A stretch of 64,000 bases of DNA from Candidatus Kerfeldbacteria bacterium (GCA_047946875.1 CP181398.1:399154-463153), one strand, 5' to 3'; counted from the stretch's first letter, positions 24,480-46,918 are shown. The notes: generated by a model not told the origin, from the sequence alone. Numbers and translations are program-made.

Positions 24480-24571
24480 TGATAACCTCCTTTTTGTATT
24501 TTTATTTTTCATATAAGTTTATAATTAATTTAGTTATTTGTCAAGACTTATTTAAATTACCCCAACTTAAA

Positions 24572-26159: not shown

Positions 26160-26627
26160 ATGATTGAGATTGTTGATTTTCAACGTCGATATTTTGAGGG
26201 GATGGTGGATTGCTACAACCAAGGTTTCCCTGACGGACATAACCGTTATACTCTAGCTAGGTTAAGTCGTTTTCAGCGAGATTCAATATTTCTCGCTATC
26301 AATGAGTTTGATCTTGTGGTCGGAGTACTTATCGGCATTACTTCAGTTCGTGAAGCTTGGTTTACTGCGCTGACCTTACTACCAAATGTCGGCAATCAAT
26401 CCCAGATTATTTTTCAGTTAGCAAATCATCTTTCTAACCGATTCGTAGATATGGGATTTGATGAAGCGCATCTTACTACTAAACGCCGAAGTATACATCG
26501 TTTGGTTCAGCGCGTTGGTGCACCAAATATTGTTGAAGTAAAGAATTGTTACTTTGATGACCAAACTAGGTGGGTGGTGACCGTTAACCGCAGTAATTTG
26601 CCACAGCTTATCAAGCTTATTAATTAA
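26160..26627 (+). CDS. hypothetical protein (GC about 45%; possible small acyltransferase-like fold)
   Basis: A 155-aa ORF followed by two hairpins at 26641-26670 and 26686-26718. The fold guess is weak. Confidence 0.45.
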   Translation: MIEIVDFQRRYFEGMVDCYNQGFPDGHNRYTLARLSRFQRDSIFLAINEFDLVVGVLIGITSVREAWFTALTLLPNVGNQSQIIFQLANHLSNRFVDMGFDEAHLTTKRRSIHRLVQRVGAPNIVEVKNCYFDDQTRWVVTVNRSNLPQLIKLIN

Positions 26628-27072: not shown

Positions 27073-27939
27073 ATGCTTATTAGCAAAAATATGAAAAAGA
27101 ATAAGAAAAACAGTAATAGTAAGACTAGAAACAAATTTGAAAGATTTAAAAATTGGTTTAAATTAAGACCTATATTAAGAAATATTATAATCGGTATAAT
27201 ATTAGGTATTATTTTTTTAATTGCAAATGAAATACGTGCAGGAATGAGGGCAGATGAATCATCGAAAGAAATAACTGAATCATTTTCTATATTAACAAAT
27301 ACAATTATTAATGATGAAGAATTAGATGAATTAAAAGTTTATGATTTTGAAGAATTTACAATAGTAGGTGATATCAGATTTGATAAAAATTCTAAAGTAA
27401 TGTCACTTGGTCATGAAAGTAATTTTGCATACTTTCTTTCAAAGATGTGGTTATCTGAACATGCAACGATAAAAACAAAATTTATTCCTCTTACAGAAGC
27501 CGCTGATTACTACATCATTGTTGAAAATGTTTTTCAAATTATTATTGGAGATGGAGATCGACGTGCAATTAGTCTAAAGTCATTTGTTGGAGGAGGAGAT
27601 TGGGAATATGAACAGCCAGTTAACCGAGCAGTAGATTTATCTCCACGATATTATCTTGACCGAAATTTTCCAATAAATAATTTTGTTATTGTTGAAATAG
27701 ATGTAAGCGCAAAAGTGATAGAAGGAAATAAACGTACTGTGAAGCTGGATATAAGATTTACAGATGAAAATGGGGATGTATATAATACTTTAGACTTGGA
27801 AAATATTACTTGGGAATTTGTCGTTGAAAAATCGACAAATGATATAGCGCGTTATGGAGTTGGTCTTATTGATCCAAGCGGTCAGCATATGCCGAAAGTA
27901 AATTTTGAATATTTACATATAACCGAAAAACAACAATAA
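27073..27939 (+). CDS. hypothetical membrane-anchored protein
   Basis: A K-rich N-terminus, a single TM, and a C-terminal domain of about 230 aa. Confidence 0.5.
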   Translation: MLISKNMKKNKKNSNSKTRNKFERFKNWFKLRPILRNIIIGIILGIIFLIANEIRAGMRADESSKEITESFSILTNTIINDEELDELKVYDFEEFTIVGDIRFDKNSKVMSLGHESNFAYFLSKMWLSEHATIKTKFIPLTEAADYYIIVENVFQIIIGDGDRRAISLKSFVGGGDWEYEQPVNRAVDLSPRYYLDRNFPINNFVIVEIDVSAKVIEGNKRTVKLDIRFTDENGDVYNTLDLENITWEFVVEKSTNDIARYGVGLIDPSGQHMPKVNFEYLHITEKQQ

Positions 27940-27964
27940 AATTAGATTAACAGAATAAAAATAT

Positions 27965-29197
27965 ATGAGTGAAACACAAAATAAATTTCAGATAAAAGGT
28001 AAATTAGCTGAACAGTTTTTGCATACACTTGCAACAAAATCATTCTTTTCTGATTGGTGTTTTTTAAATCCAATTTTACCAGATGGTAAAGAACTTTGTG
28101 ATCTTTTAGTAATCTTTGATAATGTTGCCATTATTTGGCAGGCTAAAGATTTAATGTTGAATAAAAAAGGTAAATACAATCCCAAAGAGGTTAAAAAGAA
28201 TATTCGCCAGCTCTCAGGAGCCCGACGTCAATTATTTGACTTAAAGACACCAATCGTATTAGAAAATATGCGACGAACTAAGATTAGTTTCGATCCAGAT
28301 TCAATTTCTGAAATTTACTTAATTTCTGCCCTGCTTGGAGAAGGAGAAGACTCATATGAGATAATGGAATCTATAAAAGAATTTCAAGTGCATGTATTTA
28401 CTAGAAAATTCACAGAGATTGCTTTAAAGGAATTAGATACAATAAGTGATTTTGTTTATTATTTAAGAAACAAAGAGGCATTCATTAAAGAAAAAGTAGG
28501 AAGTCTGATTGTTCTAGGAGGTGAAGAAGAAATTCTTGCATACTATTTATTAAATAATAATAGCTTTGATTCTCTCAATGGATATAAATTTGTCACTCTT
28601 GACGGTAATCACTGGAAATATCTTATAGATAATCCAAGTTATATTTCAAAAAAGAAAGCTGATAAAATAAGTTATGGCTGGGACTCAATTATTGACCGTG
28701 CTCATGAGGGGTCATCAAAATATGAGTTAGTAGCGCGTGAATTAGCAAGACCTAATCGTTTTGCACGTAGAGTCCTTGGAAAGGCGTTTTTTGATGCTAA
28801 TGTAATAGCACACGAGGATCAAGAACATGATATTTATAGAAGAGTGGTAATTGGAACAGACGATAAAGGAAATGGTCATACTTATTGTTTTCTTTTTATG
28901 GATAAAGACAGACCGAGAGAAGATAGGGCGAAATATCTTGAAGCATTATGTTTTGTAGCTAGAGGAAAATATCAGAAAAACTCAAAAGTTATTGGGGTTG
29001 CTACAGAACAGAAAATTGAATCCAAGTGCTCTTATGATTTCATTTTATTAGAAATACCAGAGTGGACTGACGAGCTAGAGGAACAAAAAAATGAGTTTCA
29101 AAAAACATTTGATATTTTAGTTGACCCTAAAATAACGTCTATTAGGGCTACTCAGTATCCAATAGTGAAAAAAAATACATCTTCAAAAACAAATTAA
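27965..29197 (+). CDS. hypothetical protein with N-terminal PD-(D/E)xK/NERD-like nuclease motif
   Basis: ELCDLLVIFDNVAIIWQAKD resembles the D...(D/E)xK core of a restriction-endonuclease fold. The rest of the protein is unassigned. Confidence 0.45.
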   Translation: MSETQNKFQIKGKLAEQFLHTLATKSFFSDWCFLNPILPDGKELCDLLVIFDNVAIIWQAKDLMLNKKGKYNPKEVKKNIRQLSGARRQLFDLKTPIVLENMRRTKISFDPDSISEIYLISALLGEGEDSYEIMESIKEFQVHVFTRKFTEIALKELDTISDFVYYLRNKEAFIKEKVGSLIVLGGEEEILAYYLLNNNSFDSLNGYKFVTLDGNHWKYLIDNPSYISKKKADKISYGWDSIIDRAHEGSSKYELVARELARPNRFARRVLGKAFFDANVIAHEDQEHDIYRRVVIGTDDKGNGHTYCFLFMDKDRPREDRAKYLEALCFVARGKYQKNSKVIGVATEQKIESKCSYDFILLEIPEWTDELEEQKNEFQKTFDILVDPKITSIRATQYPIVKKNTSSKTN

Positions 29198-29396: not shown

Positions 29397-30611
29397 ATGA
29401 ACAGGAATAATACTCCAACGCAGGACAGCTATGATGTAGTTGTTCTAGGAGCGGGCATTGCCGGACTTTTGCTTGCGAGCGAAATTTCGAAGCAATATTC
29501 CACACTAGTCGTTGAAAAAGGGTTGTCACCCCCTAAGACAAAGTATTGGCTCACAACCAAGGATGCTGTTAAGGGGAATCCTGATCTAGACGACGAATCA
29601 TTGATAAGTCGGAAGTTTGACAGTTTTTTTATCGCAGATTCTCAGCAAAGAAATCGGCAGGTACGAGGAGGTTATTATCTCTGGGATACTAATAAACTTG
29701 TTGATTTCCTCTGTGATAAGATTTCCAAAAATGGTGGTCACTTTTTGATGAATCACAAGTACTACTCACGTCGGTATGAATCTGACAACATAGTGGTTTC
29801 AGTAAATCAGAGAGATATTAGTGCAAAGGTGGTTGTTGATTGCATGGGATTTAACTCGCCGATTATTGGTGCAAACAGCATGGTGGACATAATTGGTTAC
29901 CACACTGTTTGTGGTGCTACAGTACCCACAATTAAGGAAGTTGATCCAGTTGCATTCTGCAATCTAGTTGAGTCGGGCCATGCGCATTATCTCGAAATAT
30001 TCCCCACTAATGAAAAGACAGCTCATGTTGTTATGATAGCTTCATCCGAAGAGCCGTACCCTTTCGATAAGCTTCTACCAGAGTTTCTGTTTGCAGTAGA
30101 GAATTCTCGTTGGTCGCAGTATTTCAAGGGAACATCTTCAGAAATGTTGCCACTTCACGGCGTGATCCCAGTCGGTACTCGAATGAAGACTGGAATAAAT
30201 AGAGTCTTCATTTATGGTGAGGGAGCTCAAGTTCATCCCGCTTCAACTGCTGCTGGATTGACACAGATACTCCAAAGCTACCGCCGGGTTGCTAAAGAGT
30301 TAGGAAGCCGTATCCAATCAAATCAATTAGGTGGAAAATCGCTTGAAGGGATTAGCGTCGATAACATGTCTCGTTTTTGTAGCAGGATACATAGAAGTGT
30401 TTTTGGCGATTATATGGGGTGGACTTCCACAGGATTCTCAAAACTGGTCAACCAAATGGGGTCTCTCAGTGATGATGTTTTAAATGGAATGCTGTTCGGT
30501 GATTTAGTTGCCGGTGATGTTTTTAGTTTCGAAAATCTATACCGATTGATTCGGTCACGTAATACCATTTTGTTGCGTCACGGATTTCGAGCATTGCTTC
30601 CTGGTAATTGA
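29397..30611 (+). CDS. FAD-dependent oxidoreductase (lycopene cyclase / geranylgeranyl reductase-like family)
   Basis: An N-terminal Rossmann dinucleotide motif (YDVVVLGAGIAGLLLA). GC is about 46%, and an RBS (AAAGGAA) is present. Confidence 0.65.
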   Translation: MNRNNTPTQDSYDVVVLGAGIAGLLLASEISKQYSTLVVEKGLSPPKTKYWLTTKDAVKGNPDLDDESLISRKFDSFFIADSQQRNRQVRGGYYLWDTNKLVDFLCDKISKNGGHFLMNHKYYSRRYESDNIVVSVNQRDISAKVVVDCMGFNSPIIGANSMVDIIGYHTVCGATVPTIKEVDPVAFCNLVESGHAHYLEIFPTNEKTAHVVMIASSEEPYPFDKLLPEFLFAVENSRWSQYFKGTSSEMLPLHGVIPVGTRMKTGINRVFIYGEGAQVHPASTAAGLTQILQSYRRVAKELGSRIQSNQLGGKSLEGISVDNMSRFCSRIHRSVFGDYMGWTSTGFSKLVNQMGSLSDDVLNGMLFGDLVAGDVFSFENLYRLIRSRNTILLRHGFRALLPGN

Positions 30612-31019: not shown

Positions 31020-31186
31020 TTTTACCTCCCTGTTTTTTTATGTGCAATTAAGTAAGGCAATCTTAGAATGATATTGGGTTTTTGTCAATCATTTTATTGA
31101 CAGAATATTTTATTAGTAATAAGGTGTATTATCGATCAAAAAAATATATTCATAACATAGAACGTTTAAAAAAATGGAGGAAAACA

Positions 31187-31507
31187 ATGGAATTTAATGT
31201 TGGTGATATGGTAGATGAGCAAGGTTCAAAACTGATAGTGTATGGAAGAATACTTTCTCTCACAGAGACGGAAGCGCAAGTAAAATTTCGTATCCCGCTT
31301 CGTGAGAAGAATAAAGGTTTTTGCGATGCTTGTGGAAGTTCGGACCATCTTTCAATCAATGATGATACTGACGAACTAGTGTGTCTGGTAACTGGCTGTG
31401 GTCATGAGTATGGTTTTAAAGAAACAACCGAAACTATTGCTTTGACCAAGCTGATCAATATTACAGCCAAGCGCGCTGCCGAGAAAGAAGCAGAAAAAGT
31501 AAACTAG
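31187..31507 (+). CDS. small zinc-binding protein
   Basis: A GGAGG RBS lies 6 nt upstream of the ATG at 31187, so the track ORF start at 31082 was rejected. Contains CDACGSSDH...CLVTGCGH. A hairpin terminator lies at 31527-31558. Confidence 0.5.
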   Translation: MEFNVGDMVDEQGSKLIVYGRILSLTETEAQVKFRIPLREKNKGFCDACGSSDHLSINDDTDELVCLVTGCGHEYGFKETTETIALTKLINITAKRAAEKEAEKVN

Positions 31508-31622
31508 TTTTACTAAGCGTAAAGATAAAGACTTACTTATTTGAGTAGGTCTTTTTTATTTGATATTGTAATAAATATCTGCTATACTTAGTTCAATATA
31601 TAAACAAATTATAAATAAACGT

Positions 31623-32846
31623 TTGAGAGTTTTCACAAACATACTACTTATAATAATCCTGGTGGTTCTAACACCAGTGCTTTTGTTAGTGACATCTATA
31701 AAGACTAATGTACTACATACCACTTTTCTCAAGAGTGAATTGGAACGACATGAGATTTATGATTTAGCATTTGACTTAGTTGATGATCAAATACAGCAGA
31801 TAGAGTTGGCACCAGAGATCCCTATCACTCATGAAGAGATTAGTTCGTTGATTACAAAAGTTCTAACTCCAGAGTGGCTGCAGGGGAATGTAGAATCTGC
31901 TCTGGATGATTTTGATATTTGGCTTAATGCACCGATGGGCACGGAGATTTCTATTGTCCTTACCATGGCAGAGCCAAAAGCAAACTTATTGACAGAGCTA
32001 GACGTATTAATAGATAAAAAAATAAGTGAGCTTGAATCATGCACTTCAGATGATAAAAATATTCTTTGTGCGTTTGCTGGTTTGGGGTTGGATGATTTTA
32101 AAGCTGAGTTAGCAAATTTTGATTTTGATCCAAATGATCTTGTAAATCAAATCCCAGACAATCTTGATTTGGCAAATCCTGAGTTCATAGAAGATTTTCA
32201 AAAAATCGAAGAAGTTGATAAACCTAAAGTTGTAGAGCATTACGCATGTAGTGATTTTTGTCCTGGACCACGTGAAGATTATTTGGTAAATATTTATGAA
32301 GGTGTGGATAATGATGAGGAATGTAGTAAACTTGGAGGAACTTTTGAATCATATGTTGGTTGGGGAGAAACATTTATTTGTATAGCTGATAATGTCAAAG
32401 ATGAAAAAGATATTCAAACTCAGATCTCTGAGATAAAAGAAAGTCTCGAGCAATCGAAAAAATATTATCATTTAGGACAGCAATGGTTCTGGTATGCTTG
32501 GATAATATACGGTGTATTAATAGTATTGTTCCTAATTATGAATGCCACTGGGGGCTGGCGTCGAGTTATAAATTGGTTGGGAGTTATTATGTTATGTATC
32601 GGAATTATACCGGCCACTTTAGGTCTTGCCACTAATTTTGGTCAGGATCTAGCTATGGACCAAATAGATTATGGCCCTGATTTTTCAACTAAAGTAAGTG
32701 ACTTAATACCTAGACTTATTAACGACTTTACTGATGCAATATTTACCTTACCGATGATAACGGGTGTAATACTTGTTGTTCTTGGTATAGCAGTAATTAT
32801 CGGAGCTCATTGGATACCGAAACCAAAAGGTAAAGTAAAAAATTAA
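31623..32846 (+). CDS. hypothetical integral membrane protein
   Basis: An N-terminal TM, a central acidic/Cys-containing domain of about 250 aa, and a C-terminal bundle of four TMs. Confidence 0.55.
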   Translation: MRVFTNILLIIILVVLTPVLLLVTSIKTNVLHTTFLKSELERHEIYDLAFDLVDDQIQQIELAPEIPITHEEISSLITKVLTPEWLQGNVESALDDFDIWLNAPMGTEISIVLTMAEPKANLLTELDVLIDKKISELESCTSDDKNILCAFAGLGLDDFKAELANFDFDPNDLVNQIPDNLDLANPEFIEDFQKIEEVDKPKVVEHYACSDFCPGPREDYLVNIYEGVDNDEECSKLGGTFESYVGWGETFICIADNVKDEKDIQTQISEIKESLEQSKKYYHLGQQWFWYAWIIYGVLIVLFLIMNATGGWRRVINWLGVIMLCIGIIPATLGLATNFGQDLAMDQIDYGPDFSTKVSDLIPRLINDFTDAIFTLPMITGVILVVLGIAVIIGAHWIPKPKGKVKN

Positions 32847-33023: not shown

Positions 33024-36000
33024 TTATTCAGTTTTATTCTTGAAGTAGTCTTCTATATCTTCATCGAATTTATCCATGCTTTGTTCGATAAGCTGGTCAA
33101 AGTCAGGCGCTACATTTGTATGATCCTCACCAAATATCTCAGCAAGTTCTTGGCGTTGTGATTCATTACCTAATAATATAGCTGAATGCATATGTTCACC
33201 AAAGCCATGTTCAGAGTCATTCATTTTTAGAAAGTTTTTAATATTATCTGAGTTACCACATGTGTCTCCACCATCTCCTACAAAATAAAAAGATGATGCG
33301 TAATCAGGATAATTATCTATTTCATCGTTCAAGGCTTTGGCAGTTTTTTTAATACCATCCAGCATATTGGTACCACCTTGCGTATTCAATTTTTGCATCA
33401 GTCTAACTTTCACGGTAGAGGAGTCGCCGTCATCATAATCATATCTAGTTGGTGAATCATAGTCCTGGTCAAAATCTTTTATCTTTGTAGTAGAGTCAGA
33501 AAAAATATCAATTGAGAAACGTATATATCCAAAAGCGTTTGAAATTTTATCAAAAAGCTCAGAATAAAAAACTAAAAGTTTTCTGGCACTTCGTAATTTT
33601 TCTCCTTGCATAGATCCAGAAACATCTATTAGGATTGATGCCATGAATCGTGGTTCGACAGAAGATTTTATGGTACGGGGATTTTTCACTGTTCCAAAAA
33701 GTAAATTTCTTGGTTTCATTACAGCCTTACGATTGAATGCGCCTTGACGTGTCAGAGAATCTTCATCAAAATCAACTTCATCTTTCCTAGGTAAGCGTTC
33801 AGCAAAATATTGGAACCATTGATCGACTAATGGGCCAATTTCTTCTCGTATATCATTGTATTCGTTGTAAAGATGATTTTCTTGCTCTATTTTTGTTTGG
33901 ATACGATCTAATTCAGCTAAGTCTTGTTCATTTAATTCTTCAATAAATTTATCACGTTCATCTTCACTCATAAATCCATCATCAACCATTTGGTCCATAT
34001 TATTTTTGACTTCTTCTTTCATTTGTTCTTCAAATGCTTCTAATTTTTTTTCAAGTTCTTCTTTAAAATCTTCAGGTAATTCATCTTGTTCTAATTTATC
34101 TTTAATCTCTGACAAGTCTTGGAATTTTTCTGCCTCTTGCATTTGTTGTTCAATTTCTTGTTTTTTTTGTTCCATTTGTTCCATTTGCTCCTGCGCTTGT
34201 TCAAAATTGGATTGTGCTTGTTGTGTATCACTATCTGAGGCATCAGATATATTATCTGTAGGGTTGGAAGACTCTTGAGATTCCTGAGATTCTTGTGAAT
34301 CTGTTGACTCACTATCTGATTCGCTGTCTTGCTCTGATTTTTGGTCTTGAGGAGGTTCTACACCGCCGTCTTCAGCTTCGGGCGCCGAGTCTTGTTGTCC
34401 ACTTTCACCTTGTTCGTCACTTTCATTCTTATCTTCTGGTTTTGCATTTGGAGTAGCGTCAAAACGTCTCCAATCTTTACCATCCCAAATTTCTGACCAG
34501 GCATGACCAGTATTTTGAGTGATGGCTGATATACCATCTTGAGCACCTTCTACTTTATGTCCAGTTACTAATCTCGCTGGTATTCCGGCTGAGCGCATCA
34601 TCGCAACGAATTTTGTATTAGCTGAATAGCATTCAAGATATTCTGACGTGTCAATATTTTGTAAATAATTATCTCCGGTAGATTCACTTCGGATTTTATA
34701 TTGCAAGGCCTGTGCTTTTTGTAGGTCACCACCACCAGGATAAAAATGGTTTGCCAAGATATGTTGGCGAACTTGTTCAGCTTTTTGCATTGAGCTACCA
34801 GCCAAACTAGAAATAATAGTTTCTGTTTTTGGTGATAGGTCACCTTTGTAGATAGTAGTTGTATCTTCTGGAATGGGGGGATTGGTAAAAGTCTCTGATT
34901 CTTGTATAAAATCTAATGAGAATAATCCGTTGCTATCAGCCTCAATATAGAAGCAACCATTTTGATCACGAAAAATCTTGGCCGAACCTCCTTCAAATTT
35001 CAAAGAAGAAGCATCAATTCCGAAACCGTTTGGTAATGGAAGTGCTTTTAATCCAGCATCTAGATAGCCGGATAAGGAAGTGCGTTTTTCACTATCAAGA
35101 GATGATGAATATTCAGTGATATCTTTTTTCTTGCTCCAGGTTTTATTATCTATATCGTAATAACTTTTTCGTCCTGCAGCGTAATACCCACCTAATGGAG
35201 GTTTGATCTCAAATATAGGTTTCACTAACATTTCTTCTTTGGATTCTGGTCCGGGTGGAGGTGTGTGATATTCGTCGTTATCATCTGGAGGTATAGCTGG
35301 GTCTTCTGGTGAGCTAGGTGGAACAGCATCTTCCATAAATTGTTCAAGTTCTTCGTCTAGTTCCTGCATACTCTCACTGGATTCACCGCTATCAACTTCT
35401 TGTTGTAATTGAGGTAATCCATCTTGCATAGTGTCTATCAGGTTTTTGTATCCAGATTCATCACCTCGCTGAATGTAATCACGATAAGATTCTTGTAGTT
35501 CTTCGAATATTTTTCTTTCATCTCCCGAAAGTTGTGATACTATTTGATCACGTTCATCCATAGATATTAAATCTCTCTCCTCGTGTAACCAGTTTGCTTT
35601 AAGTGCTTTTAATACTTTTTGGGTACGTGAAAGATCTCCAATTTCTTTTATGGTTCGTCGTGATTCATCTGATAATGAAGATTCAATTTGATGTCGGCCA
35701 GTACGACCATATGCATCCATAACTTTTTTTTGGACACGTGCTTGGGTAACTTCGTTATAAAGTGTATCTAACTGTTCTAGAGGAATATCTTTACCTTTCA
35801 TACCTTCTATGAATTTTGCAAAACGCTCATGATCGTAGTTTGATATATAGGCCGTTAAATCTCGTATACGCGCACTAACTGCCTCAATACCTGATTCTTC
35901 TAGATCTTGGATATCATAAATCAAAGCATCAGGACGTAGGTCTGAGGCTACTTCTTCAGCTGTATATTTGCCTTCCAAGAGTCCTTGTATTTTTTCAGAG

Positions 36001-36173
36001 CGTGATTCTTGGTCCACAGTATAACGAAGCGACCATTCTTTGCCAGGTAATACTGGCAGTTTATCTGCTGCAGCTTGCTCTGCCAAAAACAAAATTTCCC
36101 GCGTAAGTTTTACGGATTGTGGCTTTTCTCTTGATTCGGCCGATGGATCTATACTTTCGCCACGTGGTGCCAT
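33024..36173 (-). CDS. vWA (MIDAS) domain protein fused to a transglutaminase-like Cys-His-Asp core and an acidic low-complexity linker
   Basis: TGase-like core (YLECYSANTKFVAMMRSAGIPARLVTGH ... GHAWSEIWDGKDWRRFDATP). Acidic repeats (DSESDSESTDSQESQESQESS, EQMEQMEQKKQE). C-terminal vWA with MIDAS DVSGSM...GGT...GDGGD. It starts 6 bp after the upstream AAA gene stop. Confidence 0.8.
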   Translation of the reverse strand: MAPRGESIDPSAESREKPQSVKLTREILFLAEQAAADKLPVLPGKEWSLRYTVDQESRSEKIQGLLEGKYTAEEVASDLRPDALIYDIQDLEESGIEAVSARIRDLTAYISNYDHERFAKFIEGMKGKDIPLEQLDTLYNEVTQARVQKKVMDAYGRTGRHQIESSLSDESRRTIKEIGDLSRTQKVLKALKANWLHEERDLISMDERDQIVSQLSGDERKIFEELQESYRDYIQRGDESGYKNLIDTMQDGLPQLQQEVDSGESSESMQELDEELEQFMEDAVPPSSPEDPAIPPDDNDEYHTPPPGPESKEEMLVKPIFEIKPPLGGYYAAGRKSYYDIDNKTWSKKKDITEYSSSLDSEKRTSLSGYLDAGLKALPLPNGFGIDASSLKFEGGSAKIFRDQNGCFYIEADSNGLFSLDFIQESETFTNPPIPEDTTTIYKGDLSPKTETIISSLAGSSMQKAEQVRQHILANHFYPGGGDLQKAQALQYKIRSESTGDNYLQNIDTSEYLECYSANTKFVAMMRSAGIPARLVTGHKVEGAQDGISAITQNTGHAWSEIWDGKDWRRFDATPNAKPEDKNESDEQGESGQQDSAPEAEDGGVEPPQDQKSEQDSESDSESTDSQESQESQESSNPTDNISDASDSDTQQAQSNFEQAQEQMEQMEQKKQEIEQQMQEAEKFQDLSEIKDKLEQDELPEDFKEELEKKLEAFEEQMKEEVKNNMDQMVDDGFMSEDERDKFIEELNEQDLAELDRIQTKIEQENHLYNEYNDIREEIGPLVDQWFQYFAERLPRKDEVDFDEDSLTRQGAFNRKAVMKPRNLLFGTVKNPRTIKSSVEPRFMASILIDVSGSMQGEKLRSARKLLVFYSELFDKISNAFGYIRFSIDIFSDSTTKIKDFDQDYDSPTRYDYDDGDSSTVKVRLMQKLNTQGGTNMLDGIKKTAKALNDEIDNYPDYASSFYFVGDGGDTCGNSDNIKNFLKMNDSEHGFGEHMHSAILLGNESQRQELAEIFGEDHTNVAPDFDQLIEQSMDKFDEDIEDYFKNKTE

Positions 36174-36179
36174 AGATTT

Positions 36180-39100
36180 TTAATTAGTTACACGTTTTTG
36201 AGAAGTCCATGTCTTCAGAGCTTTTCGGATCTTTTCTTGGTCTTCTTTTTTGTCTATATGAGTTAGAAAATATTTTTCTAATAATTCACGAGCAGTATTT
36301 TCTGGATCACTTGATGTTTTTTCTTCAGTCGTCATACGACTTAACGTATATGCACATCTACGTAGTTCACGGCCAGTAATAGGTTGAGTAACGGGTAAAG
36401 CTTTTCGTGAACTTGTTCCTTTTTCAAAATTCTTAATAAAATCTTCTCGTAATTTATTTGCAAACTGGACTAAAGTCAGAATAGTATCAATATCAAATTT
36501 TTGTTCTAGAGTGGGCTTATCAACTCCATTGTCTATTCCATTAACATATTGATCCCAAAGTTTTACAAATTCATTATGATCCATACTGGCCTCAAATGTG
36601 AGATCAGCTAATGAATCAACGCCACGTGCAATACGAAGAGCTTCAGATGAGTCATACATCGGACGTTTATTAGGATCATCAGGATTGGCTTCACGCGTCA
36701 TCTGTGGGTATCCAATTTCTTGGGAAACCATACGACTTCGTGTAGCAAATTGAGGATCGAATGTACCTGGATAATTTGGATTCATTGACCCGACTAATAA
36801 AACACTAGATAATGCCTTAATTGTTTTTCCAGAACTAGTTTTGAGTGTTAGGGATCTTTTTTCGTCCATCAATGCATGTAAGAATATTTGAGCTTGCTCA
36901 GGCATAGCGTTAAACTCATTGAAATAAACCACAGCTCCTGGTGTACGAATACCGTTTAATATCGTAGAAGGAATTTTAACAGTCTGAGAAGCACCATCTT
37001 TGGATTCCAACATAACATCCTCAGATAGTTCAAATTCTGTAGTCCACTTGGTGCCATCCATACCAAAGTAAGGTCGGTTGGTCATATTACAAAACATTTT
37101 TACACGAACATCTTTACCTGTTCCGGCATGTCCTTTTAGTACCAGCATACCTTCTTGTAGATCCATCTGCATTTTTAGATTACCTGCCATGTTTTCTAGA
37201 TCATCTTCGGTTTCATTGTCTGTAACCCAGTGACTTTGCCATTCTGGGATAAACCCTTTGCCATTGCTAGTTTCTATATTTGGTTGGTTTTTAATACGGT
37301 TAATACGTTGTAATAGGGGAATATTATTTTCTGCACAAAAAGTACCAAATTTTTTATATGCTTCTGAATATTTATCTTGCCATTCTTTATCTTCATCTTC
37401 ATCAGTACGTTCACTAATTTTTTTACGTGTAGAATATAATTCTCTTAGTATTTTTCGATTATCTCTCCATTCTTGTCGGAGTTTTGAATCTTCTCCATGA
37501 TTCCAGTCATTGTATTTCTTTTTAATATTCTTAAAATCCTCTGCAGTAATGTAGGAAGGGGGAATGGATTCACCTTTATATGATTGTAATCCTAGACGCC
37601 ATTCTTGTTCGTCTCGCATACCTTCATATAATCTTACATTTTCATTTTTACCATCACCTGTATTAATGTTTAATATAATATCACCTTGAATATCTTTTGC
37701 TGATATACCTGGTCCTCGTGTTTTGCTATCCTCTTCGAATGCAATATCTACGGATCGTTCTTCTCTTTCCTTCACTTTCGATTCCCATTTAGGAAAGCGA
37801 GTATCACCAAAACTAACCATTTGTTTGCCGGTATCAGCGATAGTAGTCATACCACCACGTTCTATTTCTGTTAACGCATTTGAAAGTCTTACTTTCATCA
37901 TACGTTTTAGCTCTTTAGCAGCATCTGGATCATCATCAGCAAGTGCTTCTATTTCAGTTTCGATATATTTCTTTGCCTCAGATGCTCCTAAATATTGTTC
38001 GCCCGCTGTTCTATCTTTGAAACCTTGAGCTTGTAAGCGATCCTCAAGGCTAGATATCTCTTGTTGTAAAGTATCTACATGAGCTTCGATACGTTCGGAA
38101 GCTTTTTCCCTGACTTTAGCATATTCGATTTTAAATTTATGTTCGTATTCTTCTGCTAATAAATCAAGAGATGTTCGTGCTTCTTGAACTTGTTTGTAAA
38201 TTTCATCAGCTTCAAATGGTATATCGTGATTAATAGAACTTAGTCGAGCTTTAATCTGAGGATAACGAAATTCTAACCAATCATCCATTTGCATTTTTGT
38301 TTCGAAAGATTCTAAATCTTTTTTTGTTTTACTTATTAGTTCATCAATATCTTTCTTTACTTCACCACCGCGTTTTTCAAAAAGTTCACGAATCTGACTA
38401 TCAAGATCTGTTCGTGCTTTAGCTAACTCTAGTCGCTGATCACTAATCAAAAAACCTTCTTGAGATTTTATGTCTTCTAATATCTCGCGAATTTCGGATA
38501 TTGAGCCAAAAGAAAGTCCTCCCTCCAATTTTGTTCGTACTAGTTTTAGAGCCTTGTCAGCCGCTTCTTTGGCAAACATTTTTTCTTTGTCTTGTATAGG
38601 TTTCTCTAAGCCTTCTATAACATAATCAATCTCTTCGGATCGTAAACCACCTGCTTGTAGTTTTTGTCGTACAGTATTAAATTGATCACGAGCTTGTACT
38701 AAGCCTTCATGCGTTGAGACAGTTTCTAACATTTCTTTGAATTTGGTTTGTAGATCATCTCTTACTCCATCTAGTTTATCCATGGATTTGTTATCCAGAC
38801 CTGCTTGTTCATTCTTTGCAGCTTGTTGGGTGAATATATCGTCTATATTCAAATCAGCTGTTGCGCTCTGAATACGATGCTTGTCTAGTTCACCAGCAAG
38901 TTCATCAAAATTCGCTTCATGAATAACTAAATGTCCATCTTTGTCTATAGCTCTTATGTTTCCGTTGTTATCGAAATCTACATGGGATAGATTTGATTCA
39001 CGTTTTACTTCTTTTAGTGTATCCTTTGTCATTACTATTAGATCATCGCCAGAATAGAATAGGAAAAAATTACCTTTAGGGTCTAGCTGAAGGTTTGATA

Positions 39101-40058
39101 TGCTATCATAGTTTTCTGGTATAGGTGCGCCGATAGACGTAAATGATCCAGTAGTTTCATCATTCCCACCAAGATCTATCATGCGAATTTCACGTGGGCT
39201 ACTAGTACGACTAAAATAAAAAATATTAGAATTGTTCGGGTCAACCGCAATATTTCTCTCAACTGATGGGATAGTTTCAGTATAGATTGGTTGGCCTTTT
39301 GGGTCGTCATTTTTCATGATGTTAATACCAATATCGGTGATCTGGACGGAATATTCACCATTGATTTCCACATATCCTTCTTGTTCTCCAACTACTCTTT
39401 CTAGATTTTCCCTAAGTTCTTCACTATATTCGTCTTTAGGATTTAATCTTTTCCAATCACGTGGGGCAAGTTCAACTCCGTGTTCATTCTTGGTAACCAG
39501 TGTTATAACGGCACCATCTTTGGAAAACATAACAAGGTTATTATCTGGCAAAACAGCTACATTAGAAACAGTCTCATTATCAATACCACCAGAGCGGATA
39601 TTTATCATATTGTTAGTACCTAACGCTTTTCTAGCTTGTCCGCGTAGTTCAATTGGTATATCGTCAACGCTAATTTGATTATTAGTGCTGCTTTTTTTAG
39701 CAATGTAACTTTTTGAATGTAGTTTGCTGCTACTATCACTCCAATACCCTGAAGTAATAGTTTTATTAGTAATGTTGGACTGTATATCAGTAATTTTTTT
39801 AGCATTTTCGTCATAAATTTCTATATCTGAGCCTCTTTCTAGACTTACAATAGTATAATTATTCCAGGGTTGTATTGCTTCAATTTTTTGAGGTTCAACC
39901 TCTCTTCCGGTACCAGAAGATCTTCCATCAGATCTTCCATCAATCGGATTTTCCGATCGGACTAACTGGTTTAATTTTAGCTCAGGTAAAGATAGCTCAT
40001 GTTCTTCATGAGTCTCTGTTTCGCCTTGTTTATTTCCTTTTTCGTTTCCACCTACCAT
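36180..40058 (-). CDS. giant MoxR/AAA_5-like ATPase with N-terminal beta-propeller-like repeats and a long coiled-coil
   Basis: The C-terminal AAA_5 core reads LVLKGHAGTGKD (Walker A with D in place of S/T), VVYFNEFNAMPEQAQIFLHALMDE (Walker B NE for DE), LLVGSMNP (sensor 1) and FATRSRM (Arg). The N-terminus has repeated beta-strand blocks and about 300 aa of heptad-rich E/K sequence. Confidence 0.8.
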   Translation of the reverse strand: MVGGNEKGNKQGETETHEEHELSLPELKLNQLVRSENPIDGRSDGRSSGTGREVEPQKIEAIQPWNNYTIVSLERGSDIEIYDENAKKITDIQSNITNKTITSGYWSDSSSKLHSKSYIAKKSSTNNQISVDDIPIELRGQARKALGTNNMINIRSGGIDNETVSNVAVLPDNNLVMFSKDGAVITLVTKNEHGVELAPRDWKRLNPKDEYSEELRENLERVVGEQEGYVEINGEYSVQITDIGINIMKNDDPKGQPIYTETIPSVERNIAVDPNNSNIFYFSRTSSPREIRMIDLGGNDETTGSFTSIGAPIPENYDSISNLQLDPKGNFFLFYSGDDLIVMTKDTLKEVKRESNLSHVDFDNNGNIRAIDKDGHLVIHEANFDELAGELDKHRIQSATADLNIDDIFTQQAAKNEQAGLDNKSMDKLDGVRDDLQTKFKEMLETVSTHEGLVQARDQFNTVRQKLQAGGLRSEEIDYVIEGLEKPIQDKEKMFAKEAADKALKLVRTKLEGGLSFGSISEIREILEDIKSQEGFLISDQRLELAKARTDLDSQIRELFEKRGGEVKKDIDELISKTKKDLESFETKMQMDDWLEFRYPQIKARLSSINHDIPFEADEIYKQVQEARTSLDLLAEEYEHKFKIEYAKVREKASERIEAHVDTLQQEISSLEDRLQAQGFKDRTAGEQYLGASEAKKYIETEIEALADDDPDAAKELKRMMKVRLSNALTEIERGGMTTIADTGKQMVSFGDTRFPKWESKVKEREERSVDIAFEEDSKTRGPGISAKDIQGDIILNINTGDGKNENVRLYEGMRDEQEWRLGLQSYKGESIPPSYITAEDFKNIKKKYNDWNHGEDSKLRQEWRDNRKILRELYSTRKKISERTDEDEDKEWQDKYSEAYKKFGTFCAENNIPLLQRINRIKNQPNIETSNGKGFIPEWQSHWVTDNETEDDLENMAGNLKMQMDLQEGMLVLKGHAGTGKDVRVKMFCNMTNRPYFGMDGTKWTTEFELSEDVMLESKDGASQTVKIPSTILNGIRTPGAVVYFNEFNAMPEQAQIFLHALMDEKRSLTLKTSSGKTIKALSSVLLVGSMNPNYPGTFDPQFATRSRMVSQEIGYPQMTREANPDDPNKRPMYDSSEALRIARGVDSLADLTFEASMDHNEFVKLWDQYVNGIDNGVDKPTLEQKFDIDTILTLVQFANKLREDFIKNFEKGTSSRKALPVTQPITGRELRRCAYTLSRMTTEEKTSSDPENTARELLEKYFLTHIDKKEDQEKIRKALKTWTSQKRVTN

Positions 40059-40209
40059 AAATATTAATTTAATTTGTAATTTATCAGAAAAGTTTTGATA
40101 AGTATTTATTTTTATTAATATATTACATTATTGTACATTATTCTTACTGTTTTGTCAACCCCAGTCTATTGATATGAGAAGTTTAATTTATTTGGTATAC
40201 TATAAAAAT

Positions 40210-43741: not shown

Positions 43742-45148
43742 ATGGAAAAACGTCAAAATATTTTTGGATATTTAGGAATTGTATTTACTTTTGCAATTCT
43801 ATTTTTAGTTGTACCTACTACTGTAAAAGCTGAAGATTCTAGAAGTCCGGAAGTAAAATTATTTAACACGGAAGATTTTACTGTAGACAAATCATTTATG
43901 GCATTCTCTGAGTCATTCAAAGGAGGAGTATCAGTAGCAGTATGTGACCTTGATAACAATGGGTATGAAGAAGTTGTTGTTGGAGCTGGAGAAAGTGGTG
44001 GTCCTCAAGTTATAGTTTATGATAGTATGGGTAATGAAAAATTCACACCTGGTTTTTTTGCTTACGATATTTCATTTCGAGGTGGTGTAAATGTAGCTTG
44101 CGGTGATCTAGATGGCGATGGTTATGGTGAAATAATTACCTCTACAAAATCTGGGGCACCTCATGTACGAACTTTTAATAGATATGGACATCCAGTATTT
44201 ACACCTGGTTTTTTTGCTTATGATTTAGATATGGTTGGAGGAGTAAATATCGCTGTAGGTGATCTAGATGGTGATGGTGAAAATGAAATTATTACCGCTC
44301 CTGAATCTGAGGGTGAACCTAGAATAAATGTATTTAATAGATATGGTAGAAAAATAGATTTTGATATTTATCCATTTCATCATGAGTTCAAAGGTGGAGT
44401 AAGTCTTGCTGTTGCAAATATTGAAGGAGAAAAAGATGCTTTGATTACAGGTGTACAAAGTCAGGATGTATCTTGGATCAAAGTTTTTACCGCAGATAAT
44501 ACACAAAACCCAATTGGAAATTTCATGGGTTTTGATCAGGGTTTCAAAGGTGGGGTAAATATTTCTACTGGAGATTTAGATAATGACGGAGTTGATGAAG
44601 TGGTGGTAGCTGCTGGTGAAGGTGGTGGTCCACATGTTAGAATTTTTGAGTTAGATGGTAGAGCAAAAGCAGATAATTTTTTTGCCTTCGAAACTAGCTT
44701 TAGAGGAGGAGTTCTTGTCAGTGTAGGAGATATAAATAGAGATGGAGATGATGAAATAATAGTAGCACCAGGTAAAAAGAATTCTTTCACTGGTTTAGTC
44801 AATAAAATAGTAGTAGATCTTTCAGAACAAAAACTTTATGCTTATGAAGGAGATAAGCTAATAAATTCATTTTTGGTTTCTACAGGTTTAGCAGGTACTC
44901 CTACGAGACCAGGAAACTTCGCTGTATCACAAAAAATATATTCTAAAAATTATTCAGGTCCTGGGTACTACCTACCAAACACTTTATGGAATATGAGGTT
45001 TGATGGTATGAGATTGTTACACGGAGCGTATTGGCATAATAATTTTGGTCATCCAATGAGCCATGGTTGTATAAATATACATTATAGAGATGCTGAATGG
45101 TTATATGATCACACACCAATGGGTACTCAAGTAATAGTGAATAATTAG
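43742..45148 (+). CDS. secreted FG-GAP repeat protein with C-terminal L,D-transpeptidase (YkuD) domain
   Basis: A signal peptide. Six repeats of GDLDxDGxxEhh (FG-GAP/VCBS-like). The C-terminal catalytic motif is HGCINIHYRD (L,D-TPase H-G-C). Confidence 0.7.
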   Translation: MEKRQNIFGYLGIVFTFAILFLVVPTTVKAEDSRSPEVKLFNTEDFTVDKSFMAFSESFKGGVSVAVCDLDNNGYEEVVVGAGESGGPQVIVYDSMGNEKFTPGFFAYDISFRGGVNVACGDLDGDGYGEIITSTKSGAPHVRTFNRYGHPVFTPGFFAYDLDMVGGVNIAVGDLDGDGENEIITAPESEGEPRINVFNRYGRKIDFDIYPFHHEFKGGVSLAVANIEGEKDALITGVQSQDVSWIKVFTADNTQNPIGNFMGFDQGFKGGVNISTGDLDNDGVDEVVVAAGEGGGPHVRIFELDGRAKADNFFAFETSFRGGVLVSVGDINRDGDDEIIVAPGKKNSFTGLVNKIVVDLSEQKLYAYEGDKLINSFLVSTGLAGTPTRPGNFAVSQKIYSKNYSGPGYYLPNTLWNMRFDGMRLLHGAYWHNNFGHPMSHGCINIHYRDAEWLYDHTPMGTQVIVNN

Positions 45149-45238: not shown

Positions 45239-46918
45239 ATGAATTTAAGAAAGAAGGTTTGGCTTACATTTGTCGGAATTATCATATTAGCTGTTTTAGC
45301 TGGTATGTTAAGTTATCCAAGTGGACCAGATATACAAATTGGAGAGTATTTTAAAGAGATTAAAGTTCATCTTGGTTTAGATTTGCAAGGTGGTACTCAT
45401 CTTGTCTATGATGCAGATACTTCGCAGATTGAAGAATTAGAAAAAGAAGCTGCTTTAGAGGGAGTACGTGATGTAATTGAAAGAAGAGTTAATGCATTCG
45501 GTGTTTCTGAACCTGTCATTCAGACTAATAGAAGTGGAGAAAATTGGCGAATTATAGTTGAATTAGCTGGAGTTCAAGATATTAATCAGGCAATAAGCAT
45601 GATTGGAGAAACTCCATTACTAGAATTTAAGGAGGAAATATCCAATGAATTAACTGATGATGAAAAAGCTGTAATAGAAAGTTCTAATGCAGAAAAGAAA
45701 ATTAAAGCGGAAGAGGTATTAGCTCAAGTTCTAGTTGACGGAGCTGATTTTGCAATAATTGCTAATGAAAATACTGAAGATCCTGGAAATCTTAATTTCG
45801 AAACAAATGAGAGTAAAGGTGGTGATTTAGGTTTCTTTTCTAGAGAGGTAATGATTGCTGAATTTTCTGATGTTGCATTTGATAAGTTAAGTGATGGTGA
45901 AATATATCCAGAACTAGTAGAAACACAATTTGGCTATCATATTATTAAAAGAACTGGTACGAACCCAGAAAATGCTGATGAAGTTAGTGCGAGTCATATA
46001 TTATTTTCTATTCAATCTACAGTAGGTCAACCTCAGTTTGAAAATACTGGATTATCCGGTAAACAACTTGAAAGAGTGGCTGTTGAATTTGAACCAAATA
46101 CAAATATGCCTCAAGTGTCGTTACAATTCGATGCTGAGGGTAAAGATTTGTTTGCGGAAATTACAGAAAGAAATATTGGGAAAGTTGTAGGGATATATTT
46201 GGATGGTTCACCTATATCTATGCCTAGAGTTAATGATGTTATTACTGCTGGGAGTGCAGTTATAAGTGGAGATTTTGATCTGGAAGAAGCAAAACTATTA
46301 GCTCAAAGATTAAATGCGGGTGCTTTACCTGTACCTATTACTCTGGTAGCACAACAAAATATTGGAGCAACTTTAGGTAAAGCTTCAGTAGACAAAAGTC
46401 TGTTAGCAGGTATTATCGGCCTAACTTTGGTTATTATATTCATGATTATTTATTATCGTGTACCTGGAATAGTGGCCACAGTAGCTTTGATTATATATGC
46501 ATTGTTAGTATTAGCCGTATTCAAACTTGTGCCAGTTACTTTAACCTTAGCTGGTGTAGCTGGATTTATTTTATCTATAGGCATGGCTGTTGATGCTAAT
46601 GTTTTAATATTTGAAAGAAGTAGGGAAGAATTACGGGATGGTAAACATTTAGACTTGGCAATTGAAGATGGATTTTCTAGAGCTTGGCCATCTATTAGGG
46701 ATTCAAATATTTCTAGTTTAATAACATGTGTAATATTAGCTTGGTTTGGTACTAGTGTTGTCCAAGGTTTTGCTATTACATTAGGTATTGGTGTTTTACT
46801 TAGTATGTTCTCAGCGATTACTGTAACAAGGACATTATTAAGATTAATTGGTAAAGGTTGGTTAAGTAATCACTTATCATTATTTGGTGGAGTGCATAAG
46901 GAATCAAAAAATGTTTAA
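45239..46918 (+). CDS. secD: protein translocase subunit SecD (with inserted parvulin-like domain)
   Basis: LGLDLQGGTHL, the P1 base region and the 6-TM SSD are present. Residues about 150-260 carry PpiC/parvulin-like motifs (GGDLGFFSR...FGYHIIKRTG). Confidence 0.85.
   Translation: MNLRKKVWLTFVGIIILAVLAGMLSYPSGPDIQIGEYFKEIKVHLGLDLQGGTHLVYDADTSQIEELEKEAALEGVRDVIERRVNAFGVSEPVIQTNRSGENWRIIVELAGVQDINQAISMIGETPLLEFKEEISNELTDDEKAVIESSNAEKKIKAEEVLAQVLVDGADFAIIANENTEDPGNLNFETNESKGGDLGFFSREVMIAEFSDVAFDKLSDGEIYPELVETQFGYHIIKRTGTNPENADEVSASHILFSIQSTVGQPQFENTGLSGKQLERVAVEFEPNTNMPQVSLQFDAEGKDLFAEITERNIGKVVGIYLDGSPISMPRVNDVITAGSAVISGDFDLEEAKLLAQRLNAGALPVPITLVAQQNIGATLGKASVDKSLLAGIIGLTLVIIFMIIYYRVPGIVATVALIIYALLVLAVFKLVPVTLTLAGVAGFILSIGMAVDANVLIFERSREELRDGKHLDLAIEDGFSRAWPSIRDSNISSLITCVILAWFGTSVVQGFAITLGIGVLLSMFSAITVTRTLLRLIGKGWLSNHLSLFGGVHKESKNV

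Follow-up and report, generated by a model that had tools for sequence, protein, structure and literature searches.

A Candidate MoxR–MIDAS–Transglutaminase Protein-Processing Machine Encoded by a Two-Gene Module of Patescibacteria

Introduction

Several described systems combine a MoxR-type ATPase with a vWA protein. For the three-gene MoxR–vWA(DUF58)–YebA/TgpA operon, a role in ATP-dependent protein degradation was predicted (Zhang and Aravind 2012, PMC3495828); its transglutaminase-like protein, TgpA in P. aeruginosa (PMC3507681), is a membrane protein with eight transmembrane segments. CbbQ and NorQ, of the CGN subfamily of MoxR, are single-domain ATPases of ~270 aa with canonical Walker motifs, each adjoined by a vWA partner (CbbO and NorD, respectively). 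Their operons encode the client (Rubisco, NO reductase), and neither system has a transglutaminase domain. A solved structure exists for a complex of NorQ with the vWA domain of NorD (PDB 9qh8). Midasin (Rea1), from eukaryotic ribosome biogenesis, has six tandem AAA domains, a D/E-rich region, and a MIDAS domain in one chain, with neither propeller nor transglutaminase domain, and its MIDAS domain binds the UBL domain of Rsa4 (PDB 6qta).

A MoxR and vWA core with propeller sensors is found in the ternary vWA–MoxR systems of biological conflict described by Kaur et al. (2020, PMC7159879) and in Esr, an actinobacterial threat-sensing pathway (PMC13622651). Some of these systems contain transglutaminase-like or other peptidases, and some are coupled to diversity-generating retroelements (DGRs). 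All of them depend on a third component, which may be VMAP, iSTAND, FtsH, or a TPR/propeller protein; their propeller is on the vWA or sensor protein, and their effector domains are highly variable. Kaur et al. (PMC7159879) excluded genomes of Patescibacteria (CPR) from their multicellularity statistics, and we saw no CPR system described in that paper. DGR targets with an AAA/“Midasin” ATPase domain have been reported from CPR by Wu et al. (2018, PMC5758913) and, according to PMC10907252, by Paul et al. (2017). No mention of a transglutaminase–vWA partner of DGR-targeted ATPases was found in the literature examined on CPR DGRs.

Here we analyzed two adjoining genes, A and B, in a 64-kb stretch of Candidatus Kerfeldbacteria DNA (the window). 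A sequence-only reading of the window had not recognized the exact architecture of the pair, and our literature searches, which found no description of it, agree. Protein-remodelling systems of this general type are known, but the present variant has not been described.

Results

Both genes, and all features given below for them, are on the minus strand. Gene A (36180..40058) encodes 1292 aa comprising a WD40-like propeller, a helical arm, a middle domain, and a CbbQ/NorQ-type MoxR AAA+ module. Gene B (33024..36173) encodes 1049 aa comprising an N-terminal domain, a beta-sandwich, a transglutaminase core, an acidic/helical linker, and a MIDAS-type vWA domain. The ORF calls in the window give a junction of TAA, 6 nt, and ATG, which verifies the two genes 6 bp apart that had been read earlier, and the spacer is short throughout the family (median 9 nt, mostly 4–5 nt; 37 loci). 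A sigma-70-like promoter candidate, identified by pattern matching only (TTGACA-17-TACAAT, 40130..40158), lies ~70 nt upstream of A, with 11 of 12 consensus matches and the top score in the scanned region.

In all of the ~45 loci across Patescibacteria that have full-length B and enough upstream sequence, we found the two genes in the same orientation, with A directly upstream. This strict gene order points to functional coupling of both proteins. Neighborhood conservation, which the sequence-only reading had proposed to check, ends at this adjacency: no third gene family recurs near the pair (~48 loci), and no flanking synteny is conserved across loci. In other genomes, the neighbors of the pair are genes of the pentose-phosphate pathway or of purine biosynthesis, and the flanks vary between genomes. 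Judging by the reliably named records, the pair occurs in Patescibacteria, where the family is rare and patchy. Homologues at E ≤ 1e-30 amounted to only 91 representatives among 1.84 billion, and matches occurred in 159 of 185,579 species genomes and at 29 metagenome loci; these rarity counts are minimum values that depend on the exact peptide patterns used.

Protein A was identical (100%) to a protein of a Ca. Kerfeldbacteria MAG (1.31-Mb contig) and had 43 homologues (43–60% identity); its mean column identity across CPR lineages was 67%. Residues 56–385 (38904..39893) make up a cryptic WD40-like beta-propeller of ~27 strands, consistent with seven blades, so that the propeller-like N-terminus proposed earlier is supported at the domain level. 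The propeller is conserved rather than hypervariable (mean identity 53%). It is followed by a predicted E/K-rich helical arm (aa 386–735; 37854..38903) with a weak Apolipoprotein-type helical match in Pfam. The ~300 aa of heptad sequence that had been noted here are indeed periodic (heptad score z = 5.5 vs. shuffles) but not continuous, since Gly/Pro sites kept in the family alignment break the arm. The middle domain (aa 736–960; 37179..37853) is conserved (mean identity 64%), and its family profile had no PDB match.

The C-terminal part (aa 961–1292; 36183..37178) consists of an AAA+ core and lid of CbbQ/NorQ (MoxR) type, and the AAA+ core is the best-conserved part of A (mean identity 78%). 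Its assignment, made in the earlier reading, was confirmed by Pfam AAA_5 (aa 972–1110; 42.8 bits against a curated cut-off of 22, E 6.7e-11), by phmmer matches to NorQ/CbbQ, and by a profile of 22 family members that matched only CbbQ and NorQ chains in the PDB (E 1e-16 to 3.5e-15). Walker A, GHAGTGKD (aa 976–983; 37110..37133), has Asp in place of the canonical Ser/Thr, and Walker B, VVYFNE (aa 1043–1048; 36915..36932), has Asn in place of the canonical Asp. A therefore departs from GxxGxGK[ST] and hhhhDE, while the Lys and Glu are retained. These variants are invariant in the family: G976, H977, A978, G979, G981, K982, and D983 in 17 sequences, the Walker A residues G, G, G, K, and D also across 22 more diverse sequences, and Y1045, N1047, and E1048 of Walker B. 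By group, the long form has GKD with NE, the SR1 (Absconditabacteria) relatives have GKN with DE, and the DGR-linked family has GK[ST]. Replacement of Thr by Asp in Walker A and of Asp by Asn in Walker B could mean altered or lost hydrolysis. Nevertheless, the ATPase is probably active, because the family retains Lys982, Glu1048, the sensor-1 Asn in SMNP, and the arginine(s) of TRSR, and because GKD/NE co-varies with GKN/DE of the SR1 relatives.

Protein B had 186 homologue clusters (50–66% identity among the matches listed) and a mean column identity of 66% across CPR lineages, and its AF2 model reached a pLDDT of 80.4. Its domain architecture was constant over 71 aligned members. The N-terminal domain (aa 21–257; 35403..36113) is mostly helical according to AF2 secondary structure (pLDDT 71–92); by profile it had no meaningful PDB match and no detectable relatives. 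An otherwise acidic/Pro-rich linker contains the linear motif DPAIPPxDxDEYHTP (aa 291–305; 35259..35303), with invariant columns, a mean identity of 87%, and pLDDT 80 (block 291–300). In Peregrinibacteria and SR1, it is weakened to IPPxDxDEY, and the DGR-linked family has only a degenerate form. A beta-sandwich (aa 321–424; 34902..35213; AF2 strands, pLDDT ~90) precedes the catalytic core and is conserved jointly with it in every variant family.

The transglutaminase-like core (aa 435–575; 34449..34871) is TgpA-like and matched Pfam Transglut_core at 48.3 bits (cut-off 23). Cys515, His557, and Asp572 were invariant in 19 sequences; in 71 sequences, His557 and Asp572 were invariant and Cys515 nearly so. 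The Cys-His-Asp core proposed from the sequence is thus borne out, and the conservation of the triad argues for catalysis, although by its sequence the domain can be a peptidase, a cross-linker, a deamidase, or an inert binder. Next comes a disordered, acidic/Ser-rich low-complexity stretch (aa 585–640; 34254..34421) of variable length (pLDDT <50 at 585–593 and 611–636; mean identity 37%). What had been described as a 180-aa acidic low-complexity linker thus consists of these ~55 residues and, after them, ~150 residues of conserved long charged helices that lead to the vWA domain (aa 647–793; 33795..34235; AF2 helices 647–680, 684–696, 701–731, 737–749, 752–765, and 767–793; pLDDT 78–90; mean identity 55%).

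The C-terminal domain (aa 796–1049; 33027..33788) has the Rossmann-like alpha/beta fold of vWA domains, with a MIDAS of midasin/NorD type (DxSxS...T...D). The complete MIDAS seen earlier holds, as D850, S852, S854, T935, and D967 were invariant in 71 sequences. The domain was closest to the midasin MIDAS and to NorD, well above other vWA domains. It scored 19.8 bits against Pfam VWA_2 (curated cut-off 27), some homologues have a precomputed PF13519 match, and the vWA family profile gave nothing significant against the PDB. Neither A nor B has a signal peptide or hydrophobic segment; the maximum 19-residue Kyte–Doolittle hydropathy was 0.87 for A and 0.83 for B, which points to a cytoplasmic location.

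Other CPR lineages contain shorter transglutaminase–vWA and AAA_5 pairs with a DGR that mutates the C-terminus of the ATPase. In the sister loci L062, L073, and L074, an RT accompanies TR/VR repeats whose mismatches affect adenines only and fall in the 3'-terminal part of the ATPase gene. Such DGR-linked AAA_5 ATPases (700–1100 aa) carry the AAA+ module near the N-terminus, with canonical GK[ST], and a hypervariable C-terminus; their B-like partners share the beta-sandwich, transglutaminase core, and vWA domain with B. Between subfamilies, variation falls on the ATPase partner. A third variant adjoins terminase and ParB-methyltransferase genes. The sister modules are CPR DGR targets of the kind reported by Wu et al. 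(2018) and, as far as the citing account goes, also correspond to those of Paul et al. (2017). In contrast, the window ATPase has a C-terminal AAA+ module and an N-terminal propeller. The pair was rejected as a DGR target, with no RT, TR, or VR: no RT similarity occurred in the whole window, and Pfam RVT had no match in the scanned neighbors.

Discussion

Domain matches support the kinship with NorQ–NorD, CbbQ–CbbO, and the MoxR/DUF58/transglutaminase triads that the sequence-only reading had drawn. Each of these systems also differs from the pair. Compared with the MoxR–DUF58–TgpA operon, the CPR pair has two genes and no separate DUF58 gene; A carries ~960 extra N-terminal residues (propeller, arm, and middle domain) and non-canonical Walker motifs, and B is a soluble fusion of transglutaminase-like and vWA domains that lacks YebA/TgpA-like multi-pass membrane anchoring. 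Like CbbQ and NorQ, A is adjoined by its vWA partner, but it differs from them in size and Walker motifs, and the pair has a transglutaminase domain and no linked client gene. Unlike midasin, A has a single AAA_5 domain, which presumably oligomerizes, the acidic stretch and MIDAS are on B, and nothing in the analysis points to a ribosomal client.

The vWA–MoxR conflict systems share with the pair the MoxR and vWA core and the propeller, and the retroelement coupling of some of them recalls the CPR sister modules. However, the propeller of the pair is on the ATPase and its architecture is invariant, with no variable effector fused to the vWA component in the 71 aligned members of B. No third component was conserved either (no recurrent family in ~48 loci and no Pfam evidence in the flanks), so the pair falls outside the published definition of a ternary system. 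The idea of a conflict system is plausible in view of the rare, patchy distribution and of the sister modules coupled to DGRs. We also observed features that speak against such an accessory or conflict leaning, namely the lack of a substantial PADLOC match, of a defense-island context in the window or at loci L001–L004, and of a variable effector, together with a conserved propeller and a conservation of both proteins far above that of typical defense genes.

Could the pair be cargo of a recently acquired mobile or defense island bounded by inverted repeats? The sequence-only reading had placed it in a repeat-bounded, GC-atypical island. The window does contain inverted copies of ~320 nt (22899–23109 and 23907–24080 matching 40839–41163 at 88–92% identity) around a 17.7-kb segment with the pair and more than 10 other genes, and the total GC of both genes (0.36–0.37) exceeds the window mean (0.33). 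“Repeat-bounded” is thus literally correct, but no integrase, transposase, or tRNA was found at the segment borders and no mobility genes nearby. Nor does the GC-atypical label hold: with GC3 values of 0.218 for A and 0.234 for B, the genes match the mean of the window (0.234 ± 0.064), the extra GC is located at codon position 1 (0.51–0.54) and stems from amino-acid composition, and the codon usage of both genes is native. Against PADLOC-DB 2.0, A had no match to defense-system protein models, B matched TerY/vWA only weakly (7.6e-4), apart from coiled-coil noise, and the neighbors, including the repeat-bounded segment, had no defense-gene match; a known anti-phage system was rejected accordingly. 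The pair was absent from the viral contigs examined, and its neighbors in the window and at loci L001–L004 are housekeeping genes, unrelated between genomes, with no defense-island context. We therefore consider the island explanation very improbable. A cell-surface or pilus/adhesin assembly machine, which had been thought equally compatible, is hardly credible. vWA and transglutaminase domains are known in pilus tip adhesins and surface anchoring, the adhesins Mfa5 and GBS104 are among the vWA matches of B, and EsrD (PMC13622651) also points this way; but both proteins lack signal peptides and transmembrane segments, the vWA domain is distinctly nearer the intracellular midasin/NorD than adhesin types, and the neighborhood contains no conserved genes for secretion or pili.

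More weight belongs to a housekeeping maturation or assembly chaperone acting without proteolysis, though we regard it as unlikely. Here the propeller would bind a conserved cellular complex and the transglutaminase domain would be a binding or anchoring module, on the model of Rea1/midasin stripping assembly factors from pre-ribosomes or of NorQ–NorD and CbbQ–CbbO remodelling a metalloenzyme. The nearest relatives of the MIDAS and AAA+ core, the acidic stretch followed by MIDAS in B, which recalls the midasin tail, the very strong purifying selection along A and B, the native codon usage, and the housekeeping neighbors are all in its favor. It fits poorly with the rare, patchy occurrence, the absence of a conserved neighboring substrate gene or synteny, the (nearly) invariant triad, and relatives that are DGR-coupled or beside phage-like genes. 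If A had degenerated into a pseudo-ATPase, as GKD and NE might suggest, the pair would act not as a motor but as a static scaffold or a switch that binds ATP. This is improbable, given that the deviations are invariant and co-vary between the long form and the SR1 relatives, that the P-loop Lys, catalytic Glu, sensor-1 Asn, and Arg-finger region are all kept, and that no other part of A is as well conserved as the AAA+ core.

The likeliest reading of the pair is a MoxR–MIDAS–transglutaminase machine that processes specific target proteins in the cytoplasm, and we propose with moderate confidence that A and B form a self-contained, ATP-driven machine of this kind in Patescibacteria. A would assemble through its C-terminal AAA+ module into a ring, hexameric by analogy, displaying the propellers on segmented helical arms, and the propellers would capture a specific protein ligand. 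B would be the cognate co-factor, whose MIDAS domain, tethered via the long helices and acidic linker, may dock on the ring and/or use its metal ion to clamp an acidic residue on the target. ATP hydrolysis would pull on or remodel the bound protein, and the Cys-His-Asp domain would then cleave it, or perhaps cross-link or deamidate it.

Based on the rarity counts, the variable flanks, the DGR-coupled sister pairs, and the variant beside terminase and ParB-methyltransferase genes, an accessory role, either in sensing/conflict or aimed at a single specific target, is more likely than a core housekeeping one. In the sister ATPases, a retroelement-diversified binding domain stands in place of the propeller.

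Architecture of the Gene Pair

Two ORFs on the minus strand of the window, gene A (36180..40058, 1292 aa) and gene B (33024..36173, 1049 aa), meet at a junction that reads TAA, then six bases, then ATG, and the two minus-strand genes with a 6-bp spacer described in an earlier sequence-only reading were thus recovered. A consensus-like sigma-70 promoter candidate (TTGACA-17-TACAAT) was located by pattern matching ~70 nt upstream of A. Both match proteins of a Candidatus Kerfeldbacteria MAG (1.31-Mb contig) at 100% identity, and public records give their homologues only the generic names "AAA family ATPase" and "transglutaminase domain-containing protein". Scanning the window for Rfam families and tRNAs returned no matches, and an NCBIfam search gave only sub-threshold chance matches.

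The sole Pfam domain recognized in A was AAA_5 (aa 972-1110, 42.8 bits with a cut-off of 22). When an AAA+ profile built from 22 family members was compared with the whole PDB, only CbbQ and NorQ chains were matched (E 1e-16 to 3.5e-15), and therefore the ATPase is, its Walker motifs excepted, a CbbQ/NorQ-type MoxR. It bears a propeller on a helical arm. AlphaFold2 modelling of aa 1-400, which include the propeller (aa 56-385), gave a confident all-beta structure with ~27 strands (pLDDT 86, pTM 0.82); the propeller profile had only a marginal NHL-repeat match in the PDB (E 0.011), and a homology search with the propeller alignment retrieved 2 proteins only. The following E/K-rich region (aa 386-735) shows heptad periodicity far over that of shuffled sequences (z = 5.5), so the coiled coil proposed earlier stands in its periodicity but not in its continuity: family-conserved Gly/Pro sites break up the region, which we read as a segmented helical arm rather than a single continuous coiled coil. 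A profile of the conserved domain between arm and ATPase (aa 736-960) found no significant relative by sequence in the PDB.

The Walker A (GHAGTGKD) and Walker B (VVYFNE) motifs of A are invariant across the family, and A retains its P-loop Lys, catalytic Glu, sensor-1 Asn and TRSR arginines. Relatives of A in SR1 (Absconditabacteria) have GKN together with a canonical DE, and those linked to diversity-generating retroelements (DGRs) have GK[ST]. Because GKD/NE co-varies with GKN/DE in relatives, the motifs suggest an Mg2+ site that is re-wired yet functional. To our knowledge, a charge-swapped site, as GKD/NE would be, has not been described for AAA+ proteins.

Protein B is the strictly coupled partner of A and combines a midasin/NorD-type MIDAS domain with an intact TgpA-like catalytic triad; it belongs to the transglutaminase (TGase)-like superfamily and has the vWA/MIDAS fold. 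The full-length AlphaFold2 model (pLDDT 80.4) comprises a mostly helical N-domain (aa 21-257), a beta-sandwich (aa 321-424), the transglutaminase core (aa 435-575, pLDDT mostly 86-97), a disordered acidic stretch of ~55 residues (aa 585-640), long helices of ~150 residues (aa 647-793) and an alpha/beta domain (aa 796-1049). Profiles of the N-domain and of the linker plus vWA region had nothing significant by sequence in the PDB. An acidic/Pro-rich linker motif, DPAIPPxDxDEYHTP (aa 291-305), is nearly invariant in the family. That its DEYHTP part binds something common to all variants was considered and dropped, because the DGR-linked family has only a degenerate version of it.

Genomic Surroundings in the Window

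The pair had been placed in a GC-atypical, repeat-bounded island, and only the repeats were borne out. The intergenic segment 40839-41163 is an inverted copy of 22899-23109 plus 23907-24080 (88-92% identical), giving an element of ~320 nt in two copies 17.7 kb apart, and the segment flanked by them therefore contains A and B. This segment holds >10 other genes, and neither an integrase, a transposase, a tRNA nor a defence-model match was found in it. The GC3 values of A (0.218) and B (0.234) equal the window mean (0.234 +/- 0.064), and their raised total GC arises at codon position 1, reflecting a composition rich in Glu, Asp, Gly and Ala. Composition therefore does not point to recent acquisition. 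Three other ORFs, with clearly atypical GC3 (window mean 0.23), are more plausible as foreign DNA than A and B: 15383..15934 (-) with 0.50, 29397..30611 (+), an FAD-dependent oxidoreductase, with 0.38, and 26160..26627 (+) with 0.33.

The inverted element had no match in Rfam and could be an inversion mediator, or a non-coding or regulatory element. Its left copy is interrupted by ~800 nt containing an ORF without Pfam match (23341..23790, 149 aa). An AT-rich region contains four copies (23197-23272, 24586-24661, 24973-25048 and 26037-26112) of a 76-nt repeat whose core is a GC-rich hairpin (GCCTGCCCGCTTCGCAGCGAGGCGAGCCGAAGG), but the repeat is not predicted to fold better than shuffled sequences (z = -0.55). 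Between the inverted repeats lies a run of ORFs of 288, 410, 141, 407, 117 and 289 aa (24159..25893, 27073..29197 and 31082..32846), for which no Pfam or PADLOC match was found. Two fusion proteins are encoded elsewhere in the window. A SecD homologue (45239..46918, +) has, between its SecD_1st and P1-head domains, a PpiC-type peptidyl-prolyl isomerase (Rotamase) domain (aa 147-239), which is an unusual fusion. In 43742..45148 (+), an L,D-transpeptidase (YkuD) is joined to four FG-GAP repeats, and a 76-nt stretch is directly repeated within the gene (at 44081 and 44237).

Distribution and Coupling of the Family

The A/B family is small. We found 43 clusters of A homologues (43-60% identity) and 186 of B homologues (50-66% identity among the matches listed), and relatives occurred in 159 of 185,579 species when a single genome was scanned for each. 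Method-limited counts gave only 91 representatives among 1.84 billion at E<=1e-30, and 29 metagenome loci in 241 million records. Among the matches listed, named homologues were CPR (Patescibacteria; Komeili-, Taylor-, Magasanik- and Levybacteria, Paceibacterota) or unclassified "bacterium", except for a single MAG labelled Syntrophomonadaceae; some family records bear non-CPR names that come from automated bulk assemblies. The ~45 loci in which the order of A and B was established (see below) cover Parcubacteria/Paceibacteria, Microgenomates (Levy-, Davies- and Roizmanbacteria), Uhrbacteria and Peregrini-/Peribacteria. Identity to B of the window falls from 66% to 39%, roughly with phylogenetic distance, and the A proteins labelled Komeilibacteria and Taylorbacteria are 82% identical to each other. 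No relative of A or B was found in the viral contigs searched, and a BFVD fold search retrieved nothing beyond CobT-like vWA proteins of a generic kind (TMq at most 0.19).

Wherever B was full-length and the DNA before it was long enough (~45 loci), A directly preceded B on the same strand without exception, and the median gap across family loci is 9 nt. An assembly chimera, raised earlier as an alternative source of the two ORFs, is contradicted by the same architecture in dozens of independent assemblies and was rejected. Clustering of neighbouring ORFs over ~48 loci revealed no third recurrent gene. The flanks vary by genome, one having pentose-phosphate genes, YchF and LeuRS, and another purine biosynthesis genes.

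Related Modules and Diversity-Generating Retroelements

Sister modules, recognized through weaker matches, pair a TGase-vWA protein with an AAA_5 protein in other CPR lineages. In the DGR-linked form, found in Doudna-, Berkel-, Moranii-, Kaiser-, Falkow-, Uhr- and Gracilibacteria, a B-like protein of 850-970 aa (beta-sandwich, TGase and vWA) adjoins an AAA_5 protein (700-1100 aa) whose ATPase lies close to the N-terminus, and 7 of 24 loci also have a reverse transcriptase (RT). Three loci carry a repeat of 114-121 nt at the 3' end of the ATPase gene (VR) and a copy ~470 nt downstream (TR) followed by an RT gene: L074 (VR 13058-13171, TR 13532-13645), L073 (VR 9261-9374, TR 9747-9860) and L062 (VR 13009-13129, TR 13473-13593). 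In the two aligned pairs (L073 and L074), all within-repeat mismatches fall at adenines of the TR. This is the DGR signature. The three loci carry diversity-generating retroelements, whose target adjoins the B-related protein in each case. The ATPases of this form are the "AAA/Midasin" DGR targets already known for CPR (PMC5758913; Paul et al. 2017, as cited in PMC10907252); no mention of a TGase-vWA partner was found in the accessible literature. A and B themselves are neither DGR targets nor midasins, and no RT was found in the window.

The gene order is reversed, B-like then A-like, in the SR1/Absconditabacteria form, which uses genetic code 25 (L053 2351-8404, L054 7683-13841 and L055 1218-6102). 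A third form (L080 8001-15821) comprises a TGase protein (1242 aa), an AAA_5 protein (773 aa) and an unassigned protein (575 aa). In its 1.37-Mb genome it directly adjoins terminase, ParB-N6 methyltransferase and MAP3K_TRAF_bd/TPR genes, surroundings that suggest a prophage or a conflict-type locus.

Possible Mechanism and Function

The literature search, in line with the earlier failure to recognize this exact architecture, found no description of it. The pair differs from the three-gene MoxR-vWA-TGL operon in having two genes and no membrane anchor, and from ternary conflict systems in having no third component and no variable effector; no membrane or secretion signal was found in either sequence. 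By analogy with solved MoxR-vWA systems, Rea1 and the predicted MoxR-vWA-TGL degradation system (PMC3495828), A would assemble into a ring whose propellers bind a specific protein, and B would use its MIDAS domain and helices to dock and would clamp an acidic residue. ATP hydrolysis would remodel the target, which the TGase-like domain might then process by cleavage, cross-linking or deamidation.

The pair could be a housekeeping chaperone: it is very highly conserved, its codon usage is native, its neighbours are ordinary and no defence model matched, all of which would fit. Its patchy rarity, its variable gene context, its DGR-coupled and phage-adjacent relatives, and published systems combining propeller sensors, MoxR, vWA and transglutaminase (PMC7159879; PMC13622651) lead us to favour, only moderately, an accessory role of the sensing or conflict type. 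A bolder extension of this accessory role, which we consider rather improbable, is that the long-form A/B pair and the sister modules coupled to DGRs belong, as two arms, to a single intracellular surveillance system specific to Patescibacteria. Its MoxR-ring receptor would be either germline-fixed (WD40 propeller) or somatically diversified (DGR-mutated C-terminal domain), and ligand capture would make the ring fire a transglutaminase-like protease through the midasin-type MIDAS clamp. Such a split prokaryotic "proto-midasin" mechanoenzyme, running on the charge-swapped Mg2+ site, would serve immunity or host manipulation.

Should the pair prove an ordinary client-specific chaperone, its value would lie mainly in annotation. 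The invariant GKD/NE, co-varying with GKN/DE in relatives, offers a testable re-wired nucleotide/Mg2+ site in AAA+ proteins. The pair also connects the long-predicted MoxR-vWA-transglutaminase "degradation" module with the midasin/NorD type of MIDAS co-factor and with the enigmatic AAA-ATPase targets of CPR DGRs, whose constant partner appears to be the TGase-vWA protein. Patescibacteria genomes are ~1 Mb in size, and some lineages devote 7 kb (~0.5% of the genome) to this strongly conserved pair, a cost and conservation that imply an important function.
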